Shown piece by piece: positions 40,751 to 61,995 of a stretch of DNA of 64,000 nt. The notes beneath the pieces are model-generated. The model was not told where the DNA came from and searched no databases. It saw only the letters and a list, made by a program, of their open reading frames with translations. The stretch's first letter is position 1, and each line of letters begins with the position of its first letter. The position numbers and the translations under genes are program-made. Source of the DNA: Tubiluchus corallicola (taxonomy: Eukaryota > Animalia > Priapulida); contig JAQGDQ010000632.1 in assembly GCA_030141605.1 (NCBI GenBank), forward strand, positions 1-64,000. Reading direction: 5' to 3'.

Positions 40751-43278
40751 TGGGCGATTTCAACCTTGATATTTTAGCTACAAACACACTGGCATACAAA
40801 ACATACACAGAGCTTTTAAAACAATATAATGTCCACATACTTAACAACAATAAACCTACTCGAATTTCTAAAACATCAGCCACAGTAATCGACCATTTCA
40901 TTTCGAATAGTAACAATAATTTCGTAGCATATGATACTTTCCCGTGTGATTATTCGGATCATCATTTCACAATATTAGTAGATAAAATGACCCCACAGCA
41001 TAATAATAACCAAAATTCAGTCTGGCATTTAATGAGAGACTACGCCCAATACAACAAACATTCATACTTAATCGACTTAGCAAAAATGAACTGGACCTCC
41101 ATATATATGACTGATAAAATGGATACACAAGTTAATATTCTGACATATAATGTCGAATATTGCCTTAATGTACATGCACCATATAAAAACGTAAAGCAAA
41201 TCCCACAACAAAGCAAACTCAATAACGAAAGTACCTGGACAACACCTGAACTTGACAAACTAAGAATAGCGAAAAACAGAATGTATAATATATGGGAAAA
41301 GAACAAAACTAAAAACAATCATAACAATTATAAAAAAATGAGAAATCAATTTAATAATCTTAATAAATGCTTGAAAAATAAACATATACAACAACAATGT
41401 AAAAACGCAACAAATACCAAAGAAAAATGGAAAATTATTAACAATGTAATAAATAAATGCCGTAACAAACTAACGCGTGTTGACGAAATTAAGATCAACA
41501 ACACTGTTATTACAAAACCCAAAGATATTGCCAATGCGCTAAATGCAATATTCCTGAATCTTGGAAATTTTAAGGGAGTGGCTTCTCATATTAACAATAA
41601 TATAATTAATAAATTAAAAAACAAATCGTCTAACACAGTATTCTCATTCAAAAGCGTCACAGTAAAAGAAATTAACGACATATTAAATAACCTAAGTTCC
41701 AACAAAGGGAGTGGACCATCAGATATTCCTATCAAAATTCTAAAAGATAGCGCATCTGTAATAGCCCCGCATATGACTTACATTGCTAATCAGATAATTA
41801 TGAGAGGCGAATTTCCAACGGTATGTAAAATGGCAAACGTGACTCCAATCCATAAAAAAGATCCAAAATGTGGTCCCATGAATTATCGCCCAATTTCCGT
41901 AATCCATTGTTTCGGCAAAGTTTGGGAAAGGGTAATTTATGATCAGATAAATTCATATGTAAATAAACATGAACTTTTATCAAAACATCAGTTTGGCTTC
42001 CGTAAACACCATTCAACCATTGACGCCTTAATACACACAACAGAAAATTGGAGACATAGTTTAGACAACAAGCAATACATTTTAGCAGCATTTTTGGATT
42101 TAAGTAAAGCTTTCGATAGCATTAATCACGAACTACTTTACGATAATTTAAAACAAATCGGATTAGATTCGATATCGTTAAAACTGATACAAAATTATCT
42201 CAAAGATAGACAACAACGAGTAAAGTTAGATACAACCAACTTTTCTGACTGGGCCACGTTAAACAGAGGTATACCGCAAGGAACACTACTAGGTCCGTTA
42301 TTATTTTGCCTATATATAAACAACATATCCAGTGTATTAAAACACTCACAAATAACGCAATACACTGATGACACTACAATCTACATAGCCCATGAAAATG
42401 TCCAAACTGCAAAAAATTATTTAGAAGAAGATATAAAAAATATAAATATGGCATTTAGTCATTACAAGCTAAAAATGAATAATGACAAAACAGAATTCAT
42501 GATACTGTCACCCTCATTAAATACTAATGATGCATCATCAACCACTTTGACAATAGATAATGCTGTAATCAAACAAACTAACAATGTTACACTCCTGGGC
42601 ATACAAGTAGACAATAATCTTTCATGGGATGATCACTTTAATAACATATACACAAAAATGGCATCTAGCACATCATATCTCCGACAAGTTAAAGGGCAAC
42701 TAACAAAGGAAACTAAAACACTAATATATAAAACTTTAGTTCTACCACACTTCTTATATGGATGTACACTACTTCAAAAAACCAAAAGAGAAAATTACTT
42801 AAAATTAAATCTCCTTCAAAACTATGCGTTGAGATTGATAGCTGGGTACTCATACAAACACAAGGCAGGTAGACAAAAATTCAAAGCTTCAACAACTAAC
42901 CTGAGAAAAACTTTAAAATTCCCAATCATTGAAGCACACAAAGAATATTTTACTCTGCTTTTTATATTTAAATACATTAACAACATCAGCAAACCATTCC
43001 AGAATAACAGATTTACCTTTCTTCCAAATCCTATCGTTAATTCCAGAACAAGCAATCTAAAACAAATTAGGACAAATACCCACTATGGAACGAACTCTGT
43101 AATCAAACAAGCAATTTTACTTTGGAATTCTTTACCATTACAGGTTAAACAAATCAAGTCCCTATCAGCATTTAAAACAAAATTAAAATCACTAATATTA
43201 ACCAGATATGAAATACCATCACACCAGTACGACAACATACACACTAATTCCGAATTCATATACCCACGGCCATATTAA
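40750..43278 (+). CDS. LINE ORF2 3' part (rest of APE plus reverse transcriptase), offset from the 5' part by a 1-nt frameshift
   Basis: GDFN, PTR...IDH and SDH (APE); NYRPIS, QFGFR, FLDLSKAFD, GIPQGTLLGPLLF, YTDD and LLGI (RT). Confidence 0.92.
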   Translation: MGDFNLDILATNTLAYKTYTELLKQYNVHILNNNKPTRISKTSATVIDHFISNSNNNFVAYDTFPCDYSDHHFTILVDKMTPQHNNNQNSVWHLMRDYAQYNKHSYLIDLAKMNWTSIYMTDKMDTQVNILTYNVEYCLNVHAPYKNVKQIPQQSKLNNESTWTTPELDKLRIAKNRMYNIWEKNKTKNNHNNYKKMRNQFNNLNKCLKNKHIQQQCKNATNTKEKWKIINNVINKCRNKLTRVDEIKINNTVITKPKDIANALNAIFLNLGNFKGVASHINNNIINKLKNKSSNTVFSFKSVTVKEINDILNNLSSNKGSGPSDIPIKILKDSASVIAPHMTYIANQIIMRGEFPTVCKMANVTPIHKKDPKCGPMNYRPISVIHCFGKVWERVIYDQINSYVNKHELLSKHQFGFRKHHSTIDALIHTTENWRHSLDNKQYILAAFLDLSKAFDSINHELLYDNLKQIGLDSISLKLIQNYLKDRQQRVKLDTTNFSDWATLNRGIPQGTLLGPLLFCLYINNISSVLKHSQITQYTDDTTIYIAHENVQTAKNYLEEDIKNINMAFSHYKLKMNNDKTEFMILSPSLNTNDASSTTLTIDNAVIKQTNNVTLLGIQVDNNLSWDDHFNNIYTKMASSTSYLRQVKGQLTKETKTLIYKTLVLPHFLYGCTLLQKTKRENYLKLNLLQNYALRLIAGYSYKHKAGRQKFKASTTNLRKTLKFPIIEAHKEYFTLLFIFKYINNISKPFQNNRFTFLPNPIVNSRTSNLKQIRTNTHYGTNSVIKQAILLWNSLPLQVKQIKSLSAFKTKLKSLILTRYEIPSHQYDNIHTNSEFIYPRPY

Positions 43279-45083: not shown

Positions 45084-45259
45084 GTGAGTATCAATTCAAG
45101 TACCTCTTTTTGTGTTTTCATGTTCTTTCTGGTTTATGTACTGCTGTTATTCTGGACTGCGAGGTTTCTGGAAAGAAAGTGAAACTTGTTTGGTATCAGT
45201 AATGCTTGCTGTACGAAATATTTGTACTGAACGTTTCTATTGTTTTTTTCTTTTTTCAG
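45084..45259 (+). other. Probable 5'-UTR intron of the three-Ig gene
   Basis: GTGAGT donor at 45084; long polypyrimidine tract and CAG acceptor ending at 45259, 8 nt before the ATG. The acceptor is more secure than the donor. Confidence 0.6.
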
Positions 45260-45267
45260 GGTACGTT

Positions 45268-46290
45268 ATGAAGCAAACATTGAGTGCTGCAGTGGTAGTT
45301 CTCTTGTTGTTGGTTGTATGTACACGTGCAAAAGAGAAGCCACAGTTCACGCGATCCCTGGTGGACGTGACAAGTGTAGAAGCAGGAATTGTCTACTTTT
45401 TCTGCGAAGCCAATGGCGACCCACCGCCAGTGTTCACTTGGTTCAAGAGAGGAAACTTGATTAAAGCAAACACCAGTCGTCGATTTACCGTCACTTCTAC
45501 TAGAACTGGAAGTGTCTTGACGATTGATCCTGCGAAGGCGAAACGAGACGAGACCCAATATTCCTGCAAAGCAGAAAACGAAGTCGGCACTGCAGAGAGT
45601 CGTGCTTCTTTGAAAATATATGGTCGTAGCCAAATTCCGGCGGGATTTCCCAGGTTAACCCAACGGCCCCAAACAAAGGCTGTTGAAGGGGGTAGACAGG
45701 TCGTACTGGTTTGCGAGGCAACTGGCGATCCACCACCCACTGTCATATGGCTGCATAATCATGCCTTGGTTGATACCAGCGATCCAAGGATTTCAATACT
45801 CCGTGTCGGATCGCTTCATATAACAGACAGCCAGAAATCAGATGAGGGGAAATATTCATGCATTGCGACAAACTCAGTAGGAACTGCGACGTCTTATCCA
45901 TCAAGTCTGTACGTCAAAGAAAGGAGGAAGACAATGATTCCTAGTATCACACTTCCGTCAGTGTTGGAGGTACCTCAAGGAGGTGATGTGAATCTGACCT
46001 GTGCAACAGAAGGAATCGCCCAGCTACATTTTAGTTGGTTTTTGGGAAATCAAAAGGAATCACTCGAAGAAGAAGCGAGTATTATTGGTAGGGAGAACGT
46101 ACTGGAGTTGCTAAATGTCACAGAGCCTGCAAATTACACTTGCTTTGCCACCAATGCTGTTGGCGCTGCATGGTCAAGTGTTTTAGTAACTGTTGATGTT
46201 GCAGATGCCTCAAACAGAATAACATTTGGTGGAGTTAATATCGCAGGAATTCTTATTATAACAGCCCTGTTGCAGAAGATCATATTGTAG
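45268..46290 (+). CDS. LAR-paralogous three-Ig cell-surface protein, 340 aa, with signal peptide and putative GPI signal; single coding exon
   Basis: Signal MKQTLSAAVVVLLLLVVCTRA; three Cys-paired Ig domains collinear with Ig1-3 of the 56245 gene (FFCEAxGDP, GSVLxIDP...KRDET, PAGFP, DEGKYxCIAxNSVG, GRxNVLxLxN, ANYTC); hydrophobic C-terminus; AATAAA at 46552. Confidence 0.9.
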   Translation: MKQTLSAAVVVLLLLVVCTRAKEKPQFTRSLVDVTSVEAGIVYFFCEANGDPPPVFTWFKRGNLIKANTSRRFTVTSTRTGSVLTIDPAKAKRDETQYSCKAENEVGTAESRASLKIYGRSQIPAGFPRLTQRPQTKAVEGGRQVVLVCEATGDPPPTVIWLHNHALVDTSDPRISILRVGSLHITDSQKSDEGKYSCIATNSVGTATSYPSSLYVKERRKTMIPSITLPSVLEVPQGGDVNLTCATEGIAQLHFSWFLGNQKESLEEEASIIGRENVLELLNVTEPANYTCFATNAVGAAWSSVLVTVDVADASNRITFGGVNIAGILIITALLQKIIL

Positions 46291-47819
46291 ACTTACCGAA
46301 AAACCGTGATGATGACGTTCGATAGTTGAGATAGTTTTGCGTTTGTTAGTTAAGGAGAAAAGCGACGATAACTAAGATTTAGACTCAATAGACATTATTC
46401 AATGAGAGAATGACGACAATGTACGTACATTTGATAAAGCTGAAATGCACAGTCCTATGTAGTCATGACCAAGAGGCCCCAGTATATTTGGCCATAATTG
46501 CATGGTCGCGGCATCGGCGGCAATTTGATGCAGTAGAAACAGTTACTAAATAATAAAGTTTGCATTAATTTTAAAAACCAAAGTAAAGAACGAACAAAAT
46601 GCCTATAGTTTGACGAACGAGTCTTTTTGTGAGTAGGTCTTTATTCGTTATAATTGTTTGCGTTCAGCAGCCAAGGATTCACGGTTGTGCTGATGTGTGA
46701 GTCACATCATAATCATGTTACCTCTGTTATCCACGTTAGTATTACTGATGGTAAAGTATTTTCATCATTGTGTACATCGAGTAAATTACATGATTTATTT
46801 TGATTATAACATACTGTAGCAAAGTTACCATGTTGATTTACTGACTTCACACCAGCAGATAGCGTAAACGACTCAAGAATTACAAAATTTGTTTTGGTCG
46901 TTACCCAGTCATTAGCGAAGTTGAATCCAAGTATCAAGCTGTTCACTTGTTAATGGTTTATTTTTCAAACAGTTAGTCAGGCAGAGCTTGAATGCTTAAT
47001 GATTATTTTTAAAGGATTTTACAATAACAAAATACGTATTTTATTATTTCTTAAACACTTAAGAGGGTTTCGCTTAAAGGTGTGGTTGACCCACACAGAA
47101 TCATAGTCACATGCTCAAATTACAGCGTTGGCCATGGCTGCAGTGACAACGGCGGTATTCACAAAAACAACAACAGTAGCAGCAGGGCAATAAAAACAAC
47201 AACAGCAGCAATAATAGCACTAGCAGTAACGATGATGACAGTGACGACAATGATGGTTATGGCGACAATGAAGGTGGTCACTCCAGTGAACGATGACAAC
47301 TGCAACACAGGTGCAGTGAAAGAGTGCAGCAACAACAATAGCAGCAACAGCCCTAGCAAGAAGAACAAATTAAAACTGTAATAATGATGAGCAAAGTACG
47401 TTGAAAAAAACTACGATATTTTAATAAAAATTATTTTAGTTTTGGGAAATAATTTATGTGTAATGCAGTATGCGTTCAACAGAGAAAATAAACAATGTAG
47501 ATTAATAAATGGATGGGTGACAACAGGGAAAATTGCTTCTATGTATATTCATCAAACGTACTATCTTAGCTATTTTTCACCAACTATGATCGAGACTTGT
47601 TCAGTGTTTTCTCAAATGAGCACTTTTGATAGCAAAATGAGTGCCAGTCATTCGCACTAGTCATTCTATGCCACTGAGTCCTGAATCTGCTTGTGGAGTA
47701 CCAAAGCACATCAGTTATCACACAAACTTATTTTACATACTAAACAGTTTTACTGCTAATGATACCCACTCGTTACTGGAGACAATAAAGTGAGTGCTTT
47801 TTATTGTCTGCCGGATAAT

Positions 47820-48650
47820 AGATAATAAATTAATAATGAGTTTTATTGAAAAGTCATATCATAGCAGCAATGACTGAATACAACGTGTGAATGCAGCAAA
47901 AATACAGAGAAGAGAGTCAAAAGACACTTAAACAACAGAATATAAAATATAATTATGTAAGAGGCACAAAATTATATAAGAAACAAATGAGACAAATGAC
48001 TACACGAAGTCACTAAAGCGGTTTAAGACTAACTGTGACAATATATATATTACTAAGATATTAATTAGATATCATTATATCTAATTAAGAAAGTACTTTA
48101 GCATTACTTTTAATTTTTCTAATATGCTGATAGTAACATGCATTGCTGAACGTTTGTAAAGTACTGTCTGAAATTTAGGCTAATTAAAAGAGCGAGGAAT
48201 ACAATTGTTTACACTAATATGGGAAGGAGGAAGCAAGACTTAGTGCCTGTGACACTGAATAATGTTAGGAGCAAAATTACATGTTAATGTTTGTCTATGA
48301 TTTTGCATTGTAAACAGGTAAGTTTATGTTAAGCATCCAAAAAGCAAAATCTTTGCCGAAAATTATGCGACTAATTGTTTTTTAATTTTTTTTCAATACA
48401 GGAAATTTAGTCGAGCTCCAAATAAAAGAAGCATACTCCAAGGCAAGACGAATATAAGTTGCGAAGACACGAGCTGGGTTTAATGTAGAAGCTCTATATC
48501 TTTTTATCACAGAAGCCACTAAAATTCGTTTACCTGTTTTAGCAGTAATCTTTTCGATTTGTTTATCCCACTTCAGATTATTTTGAAGTTCGACACCCAA
48601 TAACTTTGTAAGATTTTTAACAGACAACTCATCACCGTTAATTATTATAG
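47820..48650 (-). mobile_element. 5'-truncated, degenerate L2/CR1-type LINE fragment
   Basis: KLLGVELQNNLKWDKQI...YIRLALEYASFIWS is the RT thumb region; aataaa and an AT-rich simple tail near 47845-47820 on the minus strand. Confidence 0.75.
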
Positions 48651-49420: not shown

Positions 49421-51545
49421 TCATCAATACAAAAAGAAACATGAAAGTACGATGCCAGAATATAGTGAAACTTGATCTCGCAAATCAAGAAGAGTTTGCT
49501 CATCTATTGATGAACTGGATATAGTGGAATCACAAGGATCACATAGGAACATAGATTTCGACGTAAGCGTAGCGGGCGTGCGGGGTGCTCTTGAATTAGA
49601 ATCCATTTCCTGGAACAGGAAAGTCGCTATTGCGCTTGATTGCTTTGCAGGAGGAGTATGAAGAATGGTGGTGATTCAGAGTTCGGAATTTCAGACCACC
49701 TCGAATAAGTCGTTATAACTTGTCGTTATTTCAGCTAGACGAAGTAGAACTACTTGATTCTAAAGTAGAATTCGGAGGTGAGGACTTAACCTTTTTTTTT
49801 GCTAGAAGTAGTAGGGCTAGTAATTAGAATGATCATTATCGATGTTCTTGCACTGCAAATTTGCATTCGCAAATCGCAGGTTGGAAGTCAGATGTTTAAT
49901 TATTTACTTAAGAAGATGATTATTTATGATGAAGTTTCAAACACCACGACATAAGATGTGTATATGAGTATTAAATAAACTAATATTCATATTTTAACTG
50001 GCCAGGATTGTCTCAGAAGTAAAAATAAATCTTATTTTCGTGAAAAAACGTCGAAGAAACAAACAAAACATATCCGCAAGTTGGTGCCTCGGTTAACTTG
50101 ATTATATCTGAGACTTTTGAGTAACATAAGATACATGGTTTATTTTAATTTATAATTATGTTATGTATGATTTATTAAATTTAACTTTAATTAAATAAGT
50201 TTTAGCATGATGAATTTTATCTTAAGTTGTTATTTACACAACAATTTATACTATATGTCTATAGTATGAATATCATTCAATTTCATGATAATTTGTTTTT
50301 TTTAATCTTCCTATATTATGTTATTCCAAGAGCATGTCAGCTTGATTTAAATAGCTAGCAATGTTATATGAATGCATGATGCCATTCTTTAACATCTTAA
50401 TTGAGTCATGTCATTAAACGTTACGTGTATAATATCATATTACACCAAGTTTTGTTATTATTATTGTGATAATTCATTTTTTCTTCACCTTGGCAATTTT
50501 TTTAACTGAGTTATATATGCTAATTAAGTGAATACTTTAATAATATAAAAAGTAATCCTTTAATTTTGCTTGCCTGCTTGATATGAAATAATCAAACTAG
50601 TTTCACATTGCAAGGTTCTTCTTTGTCGTCAGCTTATTTTGTTATTATTTATATACGTATTAGCATAAAGTAACTGTTTTTTTCTGCTTGTTGCTATACT
50701 GACTCATCTGATAATTTAATTATAAATTAAAATTACATATATATGATGAGTTTAAAGATATTAATAATAATAATATTACAGCTAATTTCTCAGAAAATGT
50801 AAATATTATTATTAGTATTGTATTATGTTATCTATGTATATTAGTAATAATAATATTTACATTTTCTGAGAAATTTATTTTTAATATTATTATTGAGAAA
50901 ATGCTTAAATACTTAGGCGATATTTACAATTTAACCTGCATGTAGAATGATACAGTATTGCTATGCATAAGTGTCTCATTTTCACACTTAGTATTACTGT
51001 TTTGACTTGCTTTATAACGTTTGTTTGGTTTCGTGAACTATTATTGGATGATATTAATTATTTTAATTTGCATGATGTTTGCATGGTAATCTAGTGTGTG
51101 TTTTTTGCTTTGTTAAATCACCATTAAATTTAATTATTGGTCTGAATTATAATTAAGTTTTAAATTATTGTACTCATTATATTAATTTGTAGACAGTTTG
51201 GCACTATCCAGTTGTTAACTATTCAAAAACCGATAACGTATGTTTGCTGCCACCCCTTCCGATCCACTTTGTTCATAAGTTGTATTTATTCATGTTGTTG
51301 TTTGGGACAAAAATTAATAATTTAATTTTCTTTGAAAACTTATCCAGCTGCTTATATGGATAGGCTGGTAGCCTCGTACCGATACGATATTCAACTGCTT
51401 AAAAATAGATAAATAGATAGTTAAAATGAAAATATGTTGAAATAATTATGTATGATGAAGCACAAACAAATTAGTGAAGACGTGAAGAGAAGTCGTAATC
51501 TCCCTATTGAACACAATAATGAATGAACAGTCCAATACCGTAAAG

Positions 51546-52024
51546 CAGGGGTGTGCAAATTGCGGCCCGCAGAGAGAACTTGTGCGGCCCGCGAAGAGAT
51601 TTGTCAACCTAATGAAAGTGCGGCCCGGGAGATTAATAGAGTGTATCCAGCTGAAGTCCGCGCCACGATCCCAAAGATAGTGCGGGTAGTTTTTTCCACT
51701 AGATCGGATGGCATTAACCCTTACAAGACGGTTGTAGCTTAATGTCACTGTACTACACAGACTGTGTGATACACATTACTAATATGCATTGTAATGAAAT
51801 TACCACTATCTGTCCTGAAAGTAGAAATATATGGTTTGTAATATAAATTTTAATAACTTCTAAAATAGTTTTTTGAGTGTAGTAGTAATGATGTACGCAG
51901 GTCAGATGCAAAAAAATCGTTATAAGGCCTTTCTGTACTTGGCTCCTTGATCAAACTGCCTCTGGCCAGGAATTGCAAGAAAGTTTAATGTAGCCCGGCT
52001 AGTCAGATAATTTGCACACCCCTG
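51546..52024. mobile_element. hAT-superfamily (Charlie-like) MITE, 479 bp
   Basis: Perfect 16-bp TIRs CAGGGGTGTGCAAATT / AATTTGCACACCCCTG; 8-bp TSD ccgtaaag / ccataaag (7/8); subterminal GCGGCCCG repeats. Confidence 0.92.
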
Positions 52025-53129
52025 CCATAAAGTGTACACTCTACGGCTGCAACTTGAATTGCTTCACCTAGTCTTTATCAACACATGTGCCATTGTATGG
52101 TCAAGCGTGCATGATATATACCCTCGACTCAGTTTATCACAGTACTCGTACACTTTGGCATTACGCATTAAAGATATTGTGATATATTGTTATATGTGTG
52201 CCAATATTTGTCAATTTGATTTGCAATAAATAATAAAGTAGTGGCATTTCTTAAAGAATGTCTTTGTTGACAAACAATGAATAGCTGTTATAGTTTAGTT
52301 AAAGAATTTGTAATAAATTTGCTTCAAGCTGTGCAAATGTCGTAAAAACATATCACGAGTAAAAAATATTCGCGGCCAGTGCAGTTAGATGGTGGTTCAG
52401 TTGGGGGGGGGCATAATTTCATTAGCTTAGAGGCCCCAAAAAGTCATAATCTGGCCCTAGTTATTCTGGCACGATAGATTTTTTCTGCTAGTGAAGTACT
52501 TGAATCCATCAGTAGTTACGTCAATCAATAATATTGTCTTATAATAATAGCATTGCCATTGACATACTTTCGCCCCTGCTATAAGGTAGCCAAATTTTGA
52601 ATAGAATTACCTGTTGATTAACTTTATGGTAATTTAACTAATCCCATCTTAAAAAACAAACAAGTTGACAAAAAAATCATTTACGTTACTTGCATTATAT
52701 ATATAAAGTACCGTTGTAAGCCACTGATGCACACTGGGATTGTCTGACATCGTGGTAGTATCACAAATTCTTTTCTCTAACTTCAGTTTTTAAATAAGAA
52801 TGCTGCTAGCTGATATAATTTTGTTTTGAGATTTTTTAAAACATACTTCAAAATTTGCAAGTGTTTTCCTTTCAAATATTTAAAAGTATCTTTGGTTAGC
52901 ATTTAAATTCTTTACGGCAAGAACAATATCAGCTTTTCCCAACTTATGACAACCCATTTATAATAAATTTTATTACATTTTTATTAGAAAAATCCAGTGT
53001 TTCTAGTGGGCTGTTTATGAAACATCTAGCCAATTTTTTTTTGAAGATTGCGCAGAAGTGCTATGTCCTTATGGAATGTTAGAAAATTATAGTGCCATAT
53101 ATAATCTTATACCCAACAGGCTTAAAAGA

Positions 53130-53727
53130 AGACAGGATGATTTTGCATATACCACCCCATTTTCAAATCGATAAAAAGTATACATTTTAACACCAATAAT
53201 ACTACAAAAGGGCTTCTGATAATTAAATAATAGATTAAAATCTTAATTAATGACAGGGAGCCAAACTAGTGATGACATCACAAACTGACATAATTTTCAG
53301 CAGCAAAAATATTCCACAAGTGTGTTCCATGTGTTTGCGAAAACAAAAATTGAAATACAGTGCTACTGTAAGGTATTCAGTGTGTTGTACTAAAACTAGG
53401 CAAGTTTTAAGATGAAATTTCAAATTTACGCTCATGCATGAAGTGTGGAACGTGTGTTCATCACAAACTAACACATTTTAACTGAGTGGTACAGCACCTG
53501 TTTTTGTGCAATGGGCTTTCGAAATACAGGCGCTAGTGGTCACTTAACTAGCAAATGGCGAAATGCATGTATCAGTAAAGAAGTAGTGGCACGAACATGA
53601 AATGTTTGTGTGGTATTAATTCTTTCACGTAAGTAATTTTTGAAAAAACAGTTTGTTTCCTTTCAATATTTAAAGAGTATAGATTGTTTTGACCTACAGT
53701 TTAAGATTGGGTCCCGCTTTGCTGTAA
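53130..53727 (-). mobile_element. Dispersed repeat copy 3, inverted relative to 10283 and 21457
   Basis: gacctacagtttaagattgg and aattaaataatagattaaaatcttaattaa are reverse complements of segments at 21478-21493 and 21921-21950. Confidence 0.7.
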
Positions 53728-53795
53728 GTCTTTCACACGCTTCAAATTTCAGTTCTCACGCATTCCTCAACTTCACACCCAAGGTTGCAAAATCG

Positions 53796-53950
53796 ACTGG
53801 CTTCCTTTGCCATCAGCATCAAGGGTGACAAAATCACCTGGCTGACTTTGCCATCAGCATCAAAGGTGACAACGTCACCAGGCTTCCTTTGCCATTTATA
53901 AGCGTCGAGTCTGCCAAAGTCACCTGGCTTCCTTTGCCATTTATAAGCAT
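53796..53950. repeat. Degenerate short tandem repeat (ctggcttcctttgccat core), 4 copies
   Basis: Directly visible. Confidence 0.75.
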
Positions 53951-56244
53951 AATGGTGAAACAGTTAATAATGCAACTTTCATTAATATGGAGCGTTCATG
54001 CATCTCACGATGTGTGTATTAAGCATTTCTGGTGCCGTAACAATAAGAAATCTCAGTAGTACCCACAAATTGCCTTATTTTTTAATTTTTGCCTTACTTT
54101 GATATTTTGATTTTGACACCAAAAATTTATGTTGCATTAATTTGCACACTGGACACCTGCCAAGGGCAACATGATCCCTAGGCTTTCTACATTTTATACT
54201 CATTTTTGCATGAAGTGGTTGGTAGGTCTCCAGTTGGCCATTTTTTGTTGTTCCTTTTACAATAACTGAATAGTCTTTCAACTGTTTGTGGTGTGCTGAT
54301 ATTGATACAAACATCTTTATTGCGAAGATCGTGTATTATCTTCGTTTAAAATATGCATTGTCTTTGTACAAAATTTTCATACATTTCCAAATAATCTTCT
54401 AAAAAAATCTTGTCCTCTTATCATTACATGTGCAAAGTTTCAGTGGAAACTTCGCTTATGGTTTGATAAGAATGTATAGGGCTAGTGGGACAGCAAGGAC
54501 AAGATCGATATTGATTTAACGTTCATTCAATATCCATTTTTTTCAACAACATATCCTTATTCTGATAAAGTAGGAAATGTCAAATTATGAACAGACAATT
54601 GCATGGTTTCTAAGTTTGACGTATGCTAACAATTTGTCCTGATCAGTAAGCATATTTTACACTTCACGTTTAGCTCTTGTATTCCGGTTTAGTCGTAAGT
54701 ATAGTTCTCTGCATAGTGAAGTGCTGCTCAATGTTCGGAAGCTGTTTGGTGACATTTAGACACACAGCTCTTAACATATTCTAACATACAAGCAGACTTT
54801 GTTTGCCCTATGTTTTTCTCGTCTGCTATTCAGTTTCTGTTTTGCTAAATGAGGTTTGTAATTTGAACTCCTGTCTGTCAGGCAAAGTTTACGAATTATC
54901 AGAATGTAACTAAAAGATTGTGAAATAGCAATTGCTATTGTTTCATTTTAGTTTTGCGGAAAGAGCCATATTCTACTGAAATTTGAAATCTCTAGACCTA
55001 CTATGCTGTTCTGATCTGAACTTCGTAAACCAGGCATTTTACAAACTTAAACCTTCATGCTGACACGAAATTTCGTAACACAAATACACAGTCAAATTAG
55101 TGAATTCCAGAAGGCGTGGAGCCTCTTAACTGGCTTCATCATAACACTGGCAACGTACACTTTTGTGTAGCCTGGCTTCTGTGACCATGTGTAAAATTTG
55201 TGATGTCTGTGGGAGCTTTAAGAGTTTGGTTGGATGTTTATACAGCTGAATTCAACAAACGCTGCTCTGTTTTCAATACACATCCAAAAGCACATTTCTG
55301 CATGCCTGGTTGGCGGGCAATCTAAATAAAGGTTTTACGCACTGGTAGTAATTTATTACTACGGCAATCAGAAAAACATGGCTTCTGCTGTATGGCATTT
55401 TATGAAAAGATTAAATTCGAATTGGTGATGGTAATAAAAACTTGTGAGACTTGGTTAATGAACTTCCTGTGTTTAGTTTTTGAGGAATCCGAAGATTTGG
55501 TTTTTGCACTAACATTAGCACTATGCTTCGCCTTTGGCAGTTATTACATTATGGTGTACATCTGTAAGTGTCAGTACTAGTGTATGCAGTGGTGTGATAT
55601 TAATGTTCACGTGCCTATTAATGCTTCTAAGAATTAGTTTTGTTGTCATCTTGGCCAAGCCGAAACATGAATAGTAAATATGAAGACGAAATATATTATG
55701 TAGTTGAAATGATTATCAACTTTTGTCATTTGATACAAAGTATTTCATTCTGTATTGTGCACTAGAGTACATACATATTTGTTATTTTTTTAGTTTAATA
55801 TTTGTAACAGAAATGAATATACAGCCACGATCCATTAACCTTGGGGTATTCCTAAAATTATTGAGAACATTGCATTTTTTAAATTGTCATGTAGCTGTCT
55901 TGCAGTTTAAAAGTGGGAAAACGTTCATCATTGGTGTTCAGGTTTTTAGGAACTGCGACTCTGGGGACAAATTTGTTGTGGCAAATTAGTCGACAATTTA
56001 ACAGTGTAGAGTGCAGATTCTCGTTTACTTTAATGTGTTTTCGTATAAGTTGTAGGCATGTATGCATGCACTGCCTCTTTCTGTGCAGGAGCACAGCATT
56101 AGATTTGCTTGGATAAACTCTATGATTTTTGTTTTTAAATTTCTCTTTGATTATTGTTTCAGGTGCTGATATACTGGATAAACACTACAAACACGAACAA
56201 CTTCAGGGCTGTGTAGAATGCTTTAATTGAATCATCCTGTGGCC

Positions 56245-59200
56245 ATGAAAGGTGCTATATCATCACTGTGCGTGCTACTTGTAGCATTTCCACATGTCAT
56301 TTCAAGAGATGCACCTGAAATAACACGTCCCCTGGAAAATTTGTTTGCCATGGACGGAGGTGTCATCAATTTTTTCTGCGAAGCCAGTGGCGATCCCCTG
56401 CCGACGTTCAGTTGGTTCAAAAACGGCAAGCCGATTAATGCCGTCGCTCATCGTCACATGACGATGTCAATGCCGGGCGGCAGTGTCCTTAGAATTGACC
56501 CCGTGAATATGAAGCGAGATGAGACAAAATACACGTGTCGTGCAAGAAACGAAGTCGGTGACGATGCCGAGAGTCAGGCCACGCTGAAGGTCTATGATCA
56601 GAATCAACTCCCTGCAGGGTTCCCAGTAATTACTCGTCATCCACAATTGAAAGCCGTTGAAAAAGACAGGAATGCTATGATGATGTGTGAAGCGACAGGA
56701 GAGCCACAACCATCAACCACCTGGCTGAAGGATTTGATTCCGGTCAATATGAGCAATCCCAGGTATTCCATTGTGTCCCAAGGTTCCCTGCAGATAATCA
56801 GTACTAAGATAGAAGACGAGGGCAAATACGAATGCATTGCACATAATTCGGTGGGAGCCGTGTCGTCTTATCCAGCTAAACTTTATGTTAGGGTGCGCAG
56901 AGTCCCCCCTCATTTTACCATTTCTCCAGAGAACATTGAAGTATCACCTAGAAGCGATGCAAATTTAACTTGCGTAGCAGTTGGCTCACCGATGCCATAT
57001 GTCAAGTGGCTATTAGACGGAGAGGAGCTAGGTGACCGTGACTCCGTGCCAGTGGGTAGGAACGTGCTGATCCTCACTAATATTAAACAATCAGCTAATT
57101 ATACTTGCGTTGCAACCTCCGATCTTGGTTCAATTGAAGTCGTTGCTAGCGTAACTGTAAAAGCTGTTCCAAAGCCACCTACTGATCTTTGGGTTTCGGA
57201 CATTACGTCAACATCCGTTAAATTATCTTGGGTTACTCCTTCTGAGGAAAATGTAAGCAGTTACATCATTAGGTATAGCACTTCAAGCAGTAGTGACCGA
57301 GACAGGAATATAACAGGTATCACAGATAACAGTTACATAATCTCACAACTTGGCGCTTACACAGAGTACACATTTGAAGTTTTGTCAGTAAACAATGCTG
57401 GTAGTGGTTCACCAAGTGAACCAGTTACGGCAAGAACGGGAGAACTCTCGCCGGCAAGTGAACCGTTGCAAGTCACTGCGCATCCAATTAGTTCAAACAG
57501 TATCCTGGTACAATGGAGAGAGCCGCTAATGCCTAATGGGCACATCAAAGGCTACAAAGTATTCTATACAGATGATAGAACTTTGCCTATGAGTTTATGG
57601 CAAGATGAAGATGTGAAATCTGGTCTCTTGATAACCATTGGTAAGTTGAAGCCTCAGCACACATACACTATTGCTGTACTTGCATATAATAGTGTCGGTA
57701 CTGGGCCACCTAGCTCACCGATACAAGTAAGAACAGAGCAAGGTGTGCCGACAGAACCCGTTGGTTTGACAGGTCGTTCGCTTTCTCCTACTACAATAGA
57801 ACTTACATGGCAGCCTCCGCATCATGCTGCTGAAAATATAGACCAGTATGAGTTATACTATAATGGTTCCACATCTGATAAAGAAAATCACATTAGAATT
57901 CAGCCAACGACTTCGTACACCTTGCGTGATCTTATTCCCAATACTATGTACGTAATTAGGTTAGCAGCTCGTTCTCGTCGGGGTGAGGGCATCAGTACGC
58001 AGCCAGTCCAGGTTAAGACGGTCGAATTCATACCTGGTGCACCTCCTAGTGACGTACAGGCGAGGGCAGTTGATGCAAGAAGCATCATTGTAATGTGGAA
58101 GCCACCAGTTCAAAACTTACAAAATGGCGAAATAACTAAATATCATATTATTTATATTCCATCAGCAAAAATTGAAACGGGGCAAGAAAAAACAGTGGAA
58201 ACTGTCGGTAGCCAGTTCTCCAAATCTGTACTTTCCCATATAATAGATGGGCTTGAAAAATGGACAGAATATACAGTTTGGATGTATGCCAGTACAGTAG
58301 TTGGTGATGGCCCACGTTCCGAGCCAGTTATGGTGCGAACATTAGAAGCAATTCCTGGAGAACCAAGGAGGATTCGTTTAGCAGCAGTAAATTCAACTAC
58401 CGTGAAGGTAGAGTGGCGACCTCCACTGAATGCAGAAAGAAATGGTATAATTCAGGGTTACAATATTCACATCCAAAAACTAGATTCACTAAATGGCAAT
58501 CCTGTTGACATGCCTATGGTGGAAAGTGTTTCTGATGGCACAAAAGAAGAATTCTTCGTGACAGGACTAGTACCTGATAGCAGCTACAGCATTCAAGTAG
58601 CTGCTTACACACGTCCAGGTGATGGCCCGAGAAGCAAAGCCAAGACAATAAAGATGCCTGGACAACCCCCAGATCCACCGCATCTTGATGTTAAACTGAA
58701 GTCAAGTAATAGCATGTTGAACGCTTTGGTGGAGTTTAGTAAACCAGAAACGACGTATGGGACTCTTGTGAGTTACCATATTACATATGGAAAAGAGGAT
58801 CAAGAACCATTTGAAACTCTCGATGTGACAGCTGACAGTAACGTGCGTACACAGCGTCAGACCATTTACGATTTGGAGAAAAATTCTGTATACGAATTTA
58901 AAGTTTCTGCAAGCAACAGCTTTGGGACTAGCAAGGAGGCAGTGAAGAAACTGATGATTCCTGATGGTGTCACAAATAATTCTCCCCAGAATGTAGTTTA
59001 CAAAATGGTGGCATATGATACTGCCCGACTTTCTTGGGATGCTCCTATAACTGAAGATGAAAATATCTCTTTGTACAGCATTGAATTTTCTAATGTTGGT
59101 CATCCCAAGGATAAAATTACCAGAAATGTAACAGATAATTTTATAATAATCGATGGTCTTGAGCCAGATAATGAGTATTCATTTATGGTGCAAGCATATG

Positions 59201-61995
59201 TGTTACATTTTCCGGGACCATGGAGCAAAATATTGCACATACAAACACCAAGAGATGATTCTCTGAAGGCTCCACAATTGTCTTCCATTTCAGCAATTTC
59301 AACAAATTCAGTAGAAGTTGTGTGGACTCCTCTAAACTCTTCCTCCGTTACAAGATACATTGTTTATTACACCGGTGAAGTTGTTGATGACTTTAGCAAG
59401 TGGCACAAGAAAAATATAGATGGAGCTAAAGAATCTGTGCTCATTATTGACAGACTTATGCCTAGAGTGACCTACGCATTTCGTATTTGTGCAACATCGG
59501 AGACTAGTGTTGGATTGCTATCTGAACCGTCATTCGTTTTTACTGATACCACAGTTAGAAAGCCAATACCTACTGTAGGTAAAGCAGCAATAAATGTGCC
59601 AGAATTTCATCAGAAGACGACAAATAACACCATTGAGGTTAAGTTATTTAAGGCAGCAGATGAAAATGGTGCAATCAACCATTACTTTATCATTGTTGTA
59701 CCTGCTCAAGAAAATAGAAGTGATCCTGAGGACATTCCCACATCGGAGCTCATGTATTATTCTAAGAATGTAAGCAATAATGGCCTGAAATATGTTCCAG
59801 ACAATGTAGCTTATATTGCTGCAAAATTTGATGTAGACAAATACCCAGAGTATTTCGAAATTGGTGATGGTTTTCACTATAATAACTTTTATAATAAGCC
59901 TCTGCAAGTTGGCTTGAAATACACAGTATTTGTTCGTGCTGTAATAGAATCACCTGGGGAAGAATTAGAGTTGTCTAGCCCATTTTCTGAAACTTTTGGG
60001 CTCAAGCTAGACGATGGTACAACAATATTAGAGGTTCCTGATGACAAAACCATGCAAATTGCTGGCCCGATAATTGGAGTTTTGCTGTTTATTATTATTG
60101 CAGTACTTTTAGTGTTCTTGTATAAACGAGTTAAGCAAAACAAATTAAAATTACCAACCTCAAGTAATTTAGTGTATGCCGATCTTCCTTCTCATATGGA
60201 TCCAGTTGAAATGAGGCGACTTAATTTTCAAACTCCAGGAATGATAAAGCATCCTCCTATCCCAATATCTGAATTGGCTGCTACCATAGAGTTGCTAAAG
60301 GAAAACGACAATGAAAGATTTTCACAGGAGTATGAGTCTATCGAAACTGGCCAACAATTTACCTGGGAACATTCAAATATGGAATATAATAAGCATAAGA
60401 ACCGTTACGCTAATGTAATTGCTTATGATCACTCTCGGGTTGTTCTCTTGCCTGTTGAGGGAGAACTAGGCAGTGACTATATAAATGCCAATTTTTGTGA
60501 CGGCTACAGAAAAAAGAATGCTTACATTTCCACCCAGGGTCCACTGCCTAACACTTTTGGAGACTTTTGGCGAATGATATGGGAGCAAAAAACATATAGT
60601 ATTGTAATGATGACAAAACTTGAAGAGAGAACCCGTATAAAATGTGATCAGTACTGGCCAATCAGGGGAACAGAAACTTACGGTCCAATGCAAGTCACTA
60701 TTATTGAAGTGACAGAGTTGGCTACTTACACGATACGTACTTTTATCTTATCAAGAGCAGACTCTCCTGAAAAACGAGAAGTGCGCCAGTTTCAGTTCAC
60801 TGCTTGGCCTGATCATGGTGTACCAGAATACCCTACTCCTGTCCTGGCATTGTTGAAACGAGTCCGAGCAATGACACCCTCAGATTCTGGGCCAGTAGTG
60901 GTTCATTGTAGTGCCGGTGTTGGTAGAACTGGTGCATTTATCATCATCGATGCCATGCTGGAACGTATCAGACATGACAGGACGGTGGATATTTACGGCC
61001 ATGTAACATGTTTACGTGCACAACGTAACTACATGGTTCAAACTGAGGATCAATACATTTTCATACATGAAGCTCTCTTAGAAGCTGTGACAAGTGGAAA
61101 CACAGAAGTTCCTGCTAGGAGCCTTTATGGTCATTTACAAAAATTGACGCAACCGGAGCCAGGAGAAAACGTTACGGGCATGGAATTTGAATTTAAAAAA
61201 TTAGCCAATATGAAAGTGCATTCTTCAAGATTTGTTAGTGCTAACTTACCAGTGAATAAGTTCAAGAATAGACTTGTCAACATACTTCCATTTGAAAGCG
61301 CTAGAGTCAACCTTCAGCCGATCAGAGGTGTAGAGGGTTCGGATTACATTAATGCTAGCTGGATTGATGGTTACAGATACAAAAATGCATACATTGCCAC
61401 GCAGGGACCGTTGCCAGACACAACTGAAGATTTTTGGAGAATGTTGTGGGAGAATAACTGTACCATTGTTGTCATGCTCACAAAATTAAAGGAAATGGGA
61501 AGGGAGAAGTGCTACCAGTACTGGCCAAGCTCTCGGTCTGCTCGATATCAGTACTTTGTTGTTGATCCTGTTGGAGAATACAACATGCCACAGTATATAC
61601 TTAGGGAATTCAAGGTCACAGATGCCAGAGACGGCGAGTCGCACATGGTCCGGCAGTTCCAGTTTACAGACTGGCCAGAACAAGGTGTGCCCAAATCTGG
61701 TGAAGGCTTTATCGACTTCATTGGTCAAGTCCACAAAACAAAAGATCAATTTGGCCAAGATGGACCAATCGCCATTCACTGTAGTGCAGGAGTTGGAAGA
61801 ACTGGAGTGTTCATTACACTGAGCATTGTTCTGGAGCGAATGCGGTACGAGGGCGTTGTCGACATGTTTCAGACAGTTAAAATGTTACGCACTCTTCGCC
61901 CGTGCATGGTTCAGACAGAAGAGCAGTACCAGTTTTGTTACAAAGCAGCTTTGGAATATCTGGGCTCGTTTGATCACCTCATGATAAATTCATGA
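56245..61995 (+). CDS. Lar: LAR-type (type IIa; PTPRF/PTPRD/PTPRS, Dlar family) receptor protein tyrosine phosphatase, about 1916 aa, intronless CDS
   Basis: Signal peptide from ggccATG 56245; 3 Ig; 8 FN3 plus a membrane-proximal FN-like domain; TM IAGPIIGVLLFIIIAVLLVFLY; DPVEMRRLNFQTPGM juxtamembrane motif; D1 with KNRY/WPD/HCSAGVGR/QTEDQY; D2 with KNRL/WPE/HCSAGVGR; ends LEYLGSFDH; splice acceptor at 56162. Confidence 0.98.
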   Translation: MKGAISSLCVLLVAFPHVISRDAPEITRPLENLFAMDGGVINFFCEASGDPLPTFSWFKNGKPINAVAHRHMTMSMPGGSVLRIDPVNMKRDETKYTCRARNEVGDDAESQATLKVYDQNQLPAGFPVITRHPQLKAVEKDRNAMMMCEATGEPQPSTTWLKDLIPVNMSNPRYSIVSQGSLQIISTKIEDEGKYECIAHNSVGAVSSYPAKLYVRVRRVPPHFTISPENIEVSPRSDANLTCVAVGSPMPYVKWLLDGEELGDRDSVPVGRNVLILTNIKQSANYTCVATSDLGSIEVVASVTVKAVPKPPTDLWVSDITSTSVKLSWVTPSEENVSSYIIRYSTSSSSDRDRNITGITDNSYIISQLGAYTEYTFEVLSVNNAGSGSPSEPVTARTGELSPASEPLQVTAHPISSNSILVQWREPLMPNGHIKGYKVFYTDDRTLPMSLWQDEDVKSGLLITIGKLKPQHTYTIAVLAYNSVGTGPPSSPIQVRTEQGVPTEPVGLTGRSLSPTTIELTWQPPHHAAENIDQYELYYNGSTSDKENHIRIQPTTSYTLRDLIPNTMYVIRLAARSRRGEGISTQPVQVKTVEFIPGAPPSDVQARAVDARSIIVMWKPPVQNLQNGEITKYHIIYIPSAKIETGQEKTVETVGSQFSKSVLSHIIDGLEKWTEYTVWMYASTVVGDGPRSEPVMVRTLEAIPGEPRRIRLAAVNSTTVKVEWRPPLNAERNGIIQGYNIHIQKLDSLNGNPVDMPMVESVSDGTKEEFFVTGLVPDSSYSIQVAAYTRPGDGPRSKAKTIKMPGQPPDPPHLDVKLKSSNSMLNALVEFSKPETTYGTLVSYHITYGKEDQEPFETLDVTADSNVRTQRQTIYDLEKNSVYEFKVSASNSFGTSKEAVKKLMIPDGVTNNSPQNVVYKMVAYDTARLSWDAPITEDENISLYSIEFSNVGHPKDKITRNVTDNFIIIDGLEPDNEYSFMVQAYVLHFPGPWSKILHIQTPRDDSLKAPQLSSISAISTNSVEVVWTPLNSSSVTRYIVYYTGEVVDDFSKWHKKNIDGAKESVLIIDRLMPRVTYAFRICATSETSVGLLSEPSFVFTDTTVRKPIPTVGKAAINVPEFHQKTTNNTIEVKLFKAADENGAINHYFIIVVPAQENRSDPEDIPTSELMYYSKNVSNNGLKYVPDNVAYIAAKFDVDKYPEYFEIGDGFHYNNFYNKPLQVGLKYTVFVRAVIESPGEELELSSPFSETFGLKLDDGTTILEVPDDKTMQIAGPIIGVLLFIIIAVLLVFLYKRVKQNKLKLPTSSNLVYADLPSHMDPVEMRRLNFQTPGMIKHPPIPISELAATIELLKENDNERFSQEYESIETGQQFTWEHSNMEYNKHKNRYANVIAYDHSRVVLLPVEGELGSDYINANFCDGYRKKNAYISTQGPLPNTFGDFWRMIWEQKTYSIVMMTKLEERTRIKCDQYWPIRGTETYGPMQVTIIEVTELATYTIRTFILSRADSPEKREVRQFQFTAWPDHGVPEYPTPVLALLKRVRAMTPSDSGPVVVHCSAGVGRTGAFIIIDAMLERIRHDRTVDIYGHVTCLRAQRNYMVQTEDQYIFIHEALLEAVTSGNTEVPARSLYGHLQKLTQPEPGENVTGMEFEFKKLANMKVHSSRFVSANLPVNKFKNRLVNILPFESARVNLQPIRGVEGSDYINASWIDGYRYKNAYIATQGPLPDTTEDFWRMLWENNCTIVVMLTKLKEMGREKCYQYWPSSRSARYQYFVVDPVGEYNMPQYILREFKVTDARDGESHMVRQFQFTDWPEQGVPKSGEGFIDFIGQVHKTKDQFGQDGPIAIHCSAGVGRTGVFITLSIVLERMRYEGVVDMFQTVKMLRTLRPCMVQTEEQYQFCYKAALEYLGSFDHLMINS

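Follow-up and report, generated by a model that had tools for sequence, protein, structure and literature searches.

A LAR-derived gene with three immunoglobulin domains and a GPI-signal-like tail upstream of full-length LAR in Tubiluchus corallicola

Introduction

Proteoglycans control LAR-family signalling by clustering or dispersing the receptor. In a 64,000-nucleotide stretch of DNA from the priapulid Tubiluchus corallicola (hereafter the window), a complete LAR gene is accompanied by a short open reading frame that resembles only the ligand-binding head of the receptor, Ig1-3. This raises the question whether a phosphatase-less LAR head has become a gene of its own and, if so, what its product does beside the receptor. 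The earlier note on this DNA had described the frame as a probably GPI-anchored mini-LAR and a candidate decoy or co-receptor.

Results

Gene structure

The mini-LAR frame (45268..46290, forward strand, as are all features below) is intact and translates into 340 amino acids followed by a stop. It encodes a signal peptide, three Ig domains, which Pfam assigns to the I-set, and a 29-residue tail. The signal peptide (residues 1-21, 45268..45330) is predicted by pattern, with a basic start and a hydrophobic core of Kyte-Doolittle value 3.68 across 11 residues. Ig1 spans about residues 22-119 (45331..45624) according to Pfam, the structural model and site comparison, and Ig2 about residues 120-217 (45625..45918) according to the model and Foldseek. 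The hinge between Ig2 and Ig3 and Ig3 itself (about residues 218-311, 45919..46200) are far from all LARs in sequence comparison. The new tail with the stop codon (46201..46290) is GPI-signal-like by pattern and hydropathy, and homology to LAR was undetected in it. The first AATAAA 3' of the stop (46552..46557) is a candidate polyadenylation signal by sequence pattern.

Full-length LAR (56245..61995), the parent or sister gene, follows after 9,954 bases on the same strand, which agrees with the distance of about 10 kb given earlier. It is one open frame of 1916 residues, free of introns across 5.75 kb of coding sequence, and contains three Ig domains, eight FN3 domains, a membrane helix and two PTP domains (Pfam). 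BLASTP aligns mini-LAR with the head of its neighbour collinearly through Ig1-3, with 140 identities in 303 positions (46%, E 7e-82). Despite this divergence the frame and all six Ig cysteines are kept, C46, C100, C149, C198, C245 and C292 of mini-LAR corresponding to C45, C98, C148, C197, C243 and C288 of LAR. The earlier description of an intact frame with a signal peptide and collinear Ig domains is therefore borne out. Its two junctions, VTVKAVPKPP where LAR enters its first FN3 domain and VTVDVADAS-NRITFGG in mini-LAR, are both exact.

The mini-LAR ATG is only 8 bases past a polypyrimidine tract with a strong 3' splice acceptor (45242..45259, by sequence pattern), a feature absent from the earlier note. 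Mini-LAR therefore probably has a non-coding first exon, for which a weak candidate donor was found by sequence pattern at 45084. We rejected an upstream in-frame ATG (45136) as the start codon, because it lies 5' of the acceptor in the presumed intron and would bury the signal peptide. At the other end of the gene, splicing onward to membrane or phosphatase sequence, a possibility that had been raised before, left no sign. The last 150 coding bases contain no usable donor: all 11 GT sites score -2.3 or lower on a donor matrix, on which the best donor in the intergenic stretch reaches 8.8. LAR has its own splice acceptor about 80 bases 5' of its ATG, with stops in all three frames between the two. 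The mini-LAR frame lacks a phosphatase or cytoplasmic domain, as had been claimed, and tblastn revealed no LAR remnant (FN3 or PTP) between the genes.

Several other features surround the two genes. Strong splice donors at 48318 and 49778 may belong to non-coding first exons of LAR, and an acceptor-like site follows the first of them after about 84 bases. Short repeats in very high copy number, with a summed contig depth of more than 10,000 in X1 (a sequencing run described below), lie between the genes at 51500-54100. A near-intact non-LTR retrotransposon (37708-43278) ends about 2 kb upstream of mini-LAR; its frames, read by eye, are ORF1-like, followed by endonuclease-like and reverse-transcriptase-like sequence.

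Homology between mini-LAR and LAR stops at the Ig3/FN1 boundary. The motif at the end of Ig3 was found in 15 metagenome loci (23 of 31 examined); in 13 of the 15, similarity to LAR stops at this point, as by an intron, and in two it continues into FN3. The breakpoint of mini-LAR therefore matches an old exon boundary. Most other LAR loci examined are interrupted at the end of Ig3, unlike the intronless LAR of the window. One locus, L001, runs uninterrupted from Ig1 to FN3-1, indicating that intron loss has occurred elsewhere too.

Origin from LAR

The 14 best PDB sequence matches to mini-LAR are heads of PTPdelta and PTPsigma, both type IIa receptor phosphatases (RPTPs), the best with 214 bits. 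The best match outside the RPTPs is Robo2, with 180 bits across four stretches, and no IgLON was present among the best 60 of 232 PDB matches. A LAR alignment of 9 rows was the basis of an AlphaFold model with a pLDDT of 80.9 overall (mostly above 90 in Ig1-2, 63-86 in Ig3 and about 50 in the tail). In Foldseek comparisons the modelled Ig1-2 fit LAR, PTPsigma, PTPdelta and Dlar with an rmsd of 1.3-2.4 A, against about 18 A or more for titin, Robo and contactin, a fit that depends on the alignment because the model leans on LAR sequences. Ig1-2 are thus predicted to take the V-shape of LAR.

In Ig1, mini-LAR is 51% identical to its neighbour as against 32-40% to 18 other LAR heads. A phylogeny of Ig1-3, proposed in the earlier note, places the two as sisters among the LARs when calculated without outgroups (SH-aLRT 97.9/bootstrap 91), whereas a free tree with distant outgroups places mini-LAR outside all LARs with weak support (73.4/80). 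Among three constrained trees, pairing with the neighbour was best (AU 0.82); the placement outside the LARs was unrejected (AU p 0.21), and grouping with the short fish genes described below was rejected (AU p 0.002). These trees use the simple LG+G4 model, which is susceptible to artefacts from long branches, with fast search for the constrained ones; 11 of 36 rows were dropped as redundant or gappy, and the set is free of IgLON sequences. The branch of mini-LAR measures 0.83, that of its neighbour 0.31. The LAR of the window itself falls outside the sampled spiralian, chelicerate and chordate LARs. We interpret mini-LAR as a tandem duplicate that is specific to its lineage and sits on a long branch. 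The PDB matches, the fit of the Ig1-2 model and the outgroup-free tree uphold the view that it is a derivative of LAR; that it is separately encoded is supported as well.

Neurotrimin, LSAMP, OPCML and lachesin (three Ig domains) are among the neighbours of mini-LAR in the ESM Atlas, at 0.93-0.94. Descent from the IgLON/Wirin group was rejected, the best sequence and fold matches being type IIa RPTPs, and the resemblance is one of layout, not of descent.

Age and selection

Only 15 of 54 fourfold sites are identical between mini-LAR and its neighbour, and the three codon positions are 62, 66 and 37% identical. Judged by these figures the duplicate is old, its synonymous sites saturated while the frame survived. 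For an estimate of dN/dS we used a sequencing run of a relative (X2; 13 million letters, only guessed to be RNA) that is about 8-9% diverged in coding DNA. A 268-base contig of X2 covers 45310-45500 of mini-LAR with 17 differences, of which the 12 listed comprise seven synonymous and five non-synonymous changes; by manual reading, its loose end of 30 letters contributes four more synonymous changes and one in-frame 3-base insertion. Uncorrected, dN/dS comes to 0.26 (p 0.02) for the aligned part; adding the loose end lowers it to 0.17 (p 0.0006; 11 synonymous, 5 non-synonymous). Should the five unlisted changes all be non-synonymous, these values would rise to 0.52 (p 0.14) and 0.33 (p 0.011), respectively. 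A control piece of LAR gave 0.07, or 0.17 in the worst case (17 of 21 differences listed). The ratios for mini-LAR are above those of LAR, indicating a gene that is constrained, but less so than the receptor. The estimate spans about 220 bases of Ig1, with the tail outside, and over this part the substitution pattern shows purifying selection at a dN/dS of about 0.17-0.33.

A second run, X1, covers all 30 bins of the window, non-coding and repeat DNA included, and therefore behaves as DNA, perhaps that of the sample from which the window itself comes. Its 850-base contig differs from the window at two positions, both non-synonymous: A91P (45538) and G205E (45881), the latter at a conserved residue. 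Among the X2 pieces listed (8 of 10), five fall in coding sequence and three in a high-copy repeat. This pattern fits a transcriptome; transcription of mini-LAR is only hinted at.

A tail resembling a GPI signal

A GPI signal is described as four regions: it opens with a polar linker, followed by small residues, then a spacer some 7 residues long, and closes with a hydrophobic end (PMC5054108). The mini-LAR tail has small residues at 312-316 (candidate cleavage site), a spacer at 317-322 and a hydrophobic end at 323-340, as had been noted before. The small-residue cluster is 26-28 residues from the C-terminus. The linker is given as unstructured and about 10 residues long before the cleavage site, with many exceptions (PMC5054108). 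It is absent if mini-LAR is cut at 312-315, because the modelled last strand of Ig3 runs to residue 312; it is present if the cut is at G321, and then the spacer is missing. The best 19-residue hydropathy of the tail is 1.98, compared with 3.11 for the membrane helix of LAR. Residues 318-335 nevertheless form a mostly apolar run of 18 residues between R317 and K337, with N324 inside, and predictors mix up GPI signals and membrane helices (PMC10084454).

To judge how easily such a tail arises, we applied a tail rule to stop-terminated 29-residue read-throughs from real non-coding DNA of the window, of which 3 of 652 passed in the strict and 6 of 652 in the looser form; among simulated read-throughs, 16 and 104 per 100,000 passed, respectively. 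The rule is ad hoc, with thresholds partly taken from the observed tail. The earlier view of a tail typical of GPI signals thus stands as far as small residues, spacer and hydrophobic end are concerned, a combination expected in less than 1% of cases by chance. It is weakened by the missing polar linker and by the alternative of a marginal helix. From these features we consider mini-LAR probably GPI-anchored; a marginal membrane helix or secretion takes up most of the remaining probability.

The source of the tail was sought within LAR. Origin from the membrane helix was rejected, as 635 of 1000 shuffles score as high, and so was origin from the first FN3 domain (369 of 1000 shuffles as high; 61 of 200 at the DNA level). 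An ESM Atlas search with the tail alone gave no usable match. The tail was probably derived from intron or flanking DNA.

The ligand-binding head

The glycosaminoglycan site of PTPsigma comprises K67, K68, K70, K71, R96 and R99 (PMC4239663); that of Dlar, which binds heparan sulfate, is likewise in Ig1 (bioRxiv 2020.11.03.367540). In Ig1 of mini-LAR four of the six positions are basic (K60, R61, K90, R93) and N63 and L64 stand in place of K70 and K71. More basic residues are nearby, and the domain has a net charge of +4. The neighbouring LAR keeps three of the six positions, and its Ig1, at -1, has the lowest net charge of 12 heads compared. This difference favours a proteoglycan-binding tether or decoy, and charge-based sugar binding by Ig1 of mini-LAR is plausible. 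Dlar Ig1-2 are reported to pull down three proteoglycans (PMC9140312), soluble Ig1-2 to be effective as a decoy (PMC13664785), and shed LAR ectodomains are proposed competitors (PMC8711739).

Ig3 has taken a different course. Its identity to LARs is 31-41%, compared with 52-67% for the neighbour; the hinge has retained an RR within otherwise rewritten sequence, and the conserved Ig3 core motif is rewritten too. Slitrk, SALM and IL1RAPL1 dock on Ig2, hinge and Ig3 (PMC6078854), and since these docking regions are remodelled in mini-LAR, protein-ligand mimicry is unlikely. The earlier assumption that Ig1-3 would bind the ligands of LAR is therefore weakened for trans-synaptic partners, while sugar binding remains predicted from the mostly kept basic Ig1.

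Relatives in other organisms

A metagenome scan with mini-LAR gave no relatives in 46 pattern matches; with the head of the neighbour, 31 loci of 36-70% identity were found, with no close relative among them. Both proteins of the window are absent from a collection with 15 billion entries. A single-sequence homologue search with mini-LAR found four proteins only, and a search of representative proteins was dominated by long multi-Ig proteins. A profile search among proteins of 156-595 residues, in which 7,992 best-word candidates were scored, gave at least 101 matches, of which 16 have their C-terminus no more than 50 residues from the Ig3 motif. In none of the 101 is Ig3 followed by a hydrophobic tail. 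Ten have a hydrophobic C-terminus; nine of these are without the Ig3 motif, and in the tenth it is the strand of Ig3 itself.

The search did reveal PTPRF-like gene models restricted to Ig1-3 in several species of cichlids (P0289, P0377, P0378) and tunas (P0290, P0389, P0393), all from automatic annotation, and in addition P0384; some are also present on short Logan contigs. Their identity to full PTPRFs is 75-83%, compared with 91-96% among the full PTPRFs themselves; they are therefore diverged, fast-evolving paralogues, probably secreted in view of their short polar tails, although they could be split annotations. Like mini-LAR they have a signal peptide and Ig1-3, end at the Ig3/FN1 boundary and are diverged. 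Unlike it they have short polar tails and an unremodelled Ig3, and their origin is independent. The earlier note, whose author knew of no described dedicated gene of this kind, must be qualified accordingly: it holds for GPI-type paralogues, as we found no GPI-anchored or dedicated Ig-only LAR paralogue in the literature searched (few subscription papers) or in the available portions of three reviews (PMC8711739, PMC12598525, PMC10084454), but not for gene models such as those of the fishes.

LAR Ig modules also occur in other contexts. Amphioxus-like mosaics (P0158, P0166, P0265) combine them with other extracellular repeat domains in the absence of a phosphatase. A protein of the nemertean Tubulanus (P0007), named hemicentin-1-like, consists of tandem LAR Ig1-3 repeats that are 51% identical to the LAR head of the window. 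Short forms of mammalian PTPRF (P0315, P0318, P0335, in clusters of 9-25 members) end after Ig2, and their read-through tails, of moderate hydrophobicity, resemble one another between species.

Discussion

Which role would account for these properties? With some reserve, and at somewhat less than even confidence, we favour an old, intact, partial tandem duplicate of LAR that has a GPI-type tail and serves as a tethered, proteoglycan-binding buffer of LAR signalling. Mini-LAR would enter the ER and exchange its tail for a GPI anchor near residues 312-315. At the cell surface the V-shaped Ig1-2 would capture heparan or chondroitin sulfate chains of proteoglycans and elicit no signal. By sequestering or concentrating proteoglycans beside LAR, the protein would alter LAR clustering, and the remodelled Ig3 would be mainly a stalk. 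Paired decoys are expected to stay similar to their receptor (PMC2832619); the 46% identity and the saturated synonymous sites, which do not show such a pattern, argue against this interpretation. A division of labour, in which the sugar site of the neighbour has eroded and a GPI-anchored mini-LAR captures proteoglycans and presents them as a co-receptor, would also be compatible with the charges of the two Ig1 domains, but we consider it unlikely.

A doubtful but serious contender is that mini-LAR has left the LAR pathway altogether and works on its own in adhesion or recognition, having converged on IgLONs and lachesin with their three Ig domains and GPI anchor. The low identity of Ig3 to LARs, the rewritten hinge and core motif and the Atlas neighbours fit this proposal, as does the fact that the two genes have not been homogenised, whereas the basic patch of Ig1 and the still LAR-like sequence and predicted shape of Ig1-2 do not. 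That the protein is real but not GPI-linked, being held by a marginal single membrane helix with a cytosolic end of 3-5 residues or secreted like the fish paralogues, appears rather unlikely. The charge-bounded apolar run, the lack of a polar linker and the confusion of the two signal types by predictors (PMC10084454) speak for it; the low hydropathy compared with the LAR helix, N324 within the run and the position of the small-residue cluster speak against it.

It is improbable that mini-LAR is a formerly functional duplicate now drifting into decay, with an incidental tail. Both X1 differences change the protein, the branch is long and the gene is without confirmed RNA, but frame, signal peptide, cysteines and acceptor have stayed intact while synonymous sites became saturated, and the X2 contig shows a synonymous excess and a frame-keeping insertion. 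The least probable proposal, to which we give hardly any weight, is an alternative exon of the LAR locus that shares a non-coding first exon with LAR or is spliced onward to membrane or phosphatase sequence. Both coding exons are on the same strand with an acceptor just 5' of the ATG, so that a shared upstream exon is possible; the protein would be unchanged even then. Onward splicing is opposed by the poor terminal GT sites, the stops ahead of the LAR ATG and the lack of FN3 or PTP remnants between the genes.

If the less likely division of labour between the two genes were real, mini-LAR and the secreted fish paralogues would together make Ig1-3-only LAR modulators a recurrent class, so far undescribed, that originates at the exon boundary between Ig3 and FN1. 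A tethered LAR head with a dedicated gene under selection would be the natural counterpart of shed, small-isoform or engineered head-only competitors, and an example of a receptor phosphatase that has converged on the layout of IgLONs. Through the fish paralogues the broader idea can be tested in animals convenient for the laboratory. The impact is reduced in that the gene is lineage-restricted and many truncated, GPI-anchored receptor paralogues are already known.

Mini-LAR shares with the type IIa RPTPs (LAR/PTPRF, PTPsigma, PTPdelta, Dlar) the signal peptide, the order of Ig1-3, the V-shaped Ig1-2 (predicted in mini-LAR), the basic Ig1 and the dibasic hinge. It differs in its remodelled Ig3 and new hydrophobic tail and in the absence of FN3 domains, membrane helix and PTP domains, and is therefore LAR-derived yet not an RPTP. 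T-cadherin and NCAM-120 are GPI-anchored, non-signalling members of transmembrane receptor families. [quoted passage not shown] IgLONs, lachesin and DIPs (the Wirin family; PMC10084454) are alike by convergence, mini-LAR being tied to LAR by sequence, tree and fold. Like mini-LAR, the LAR ectodomains released by shedding, the small ectodomain isoform of PTPRF and engineered Ig1-2 of PTPsigma are phosphatase-less ligand-binding heads, for which competition with the receptor is described as proposed or shown (PMC8711739, PMC4239663, PMC13664785). Unlike mini-LAR, which has a gene of its own, shares 46% identity with its neighbour and is probably tethered, these heads are soluble, identical to the receptor, and either engineered or products of the receptor gene itself.
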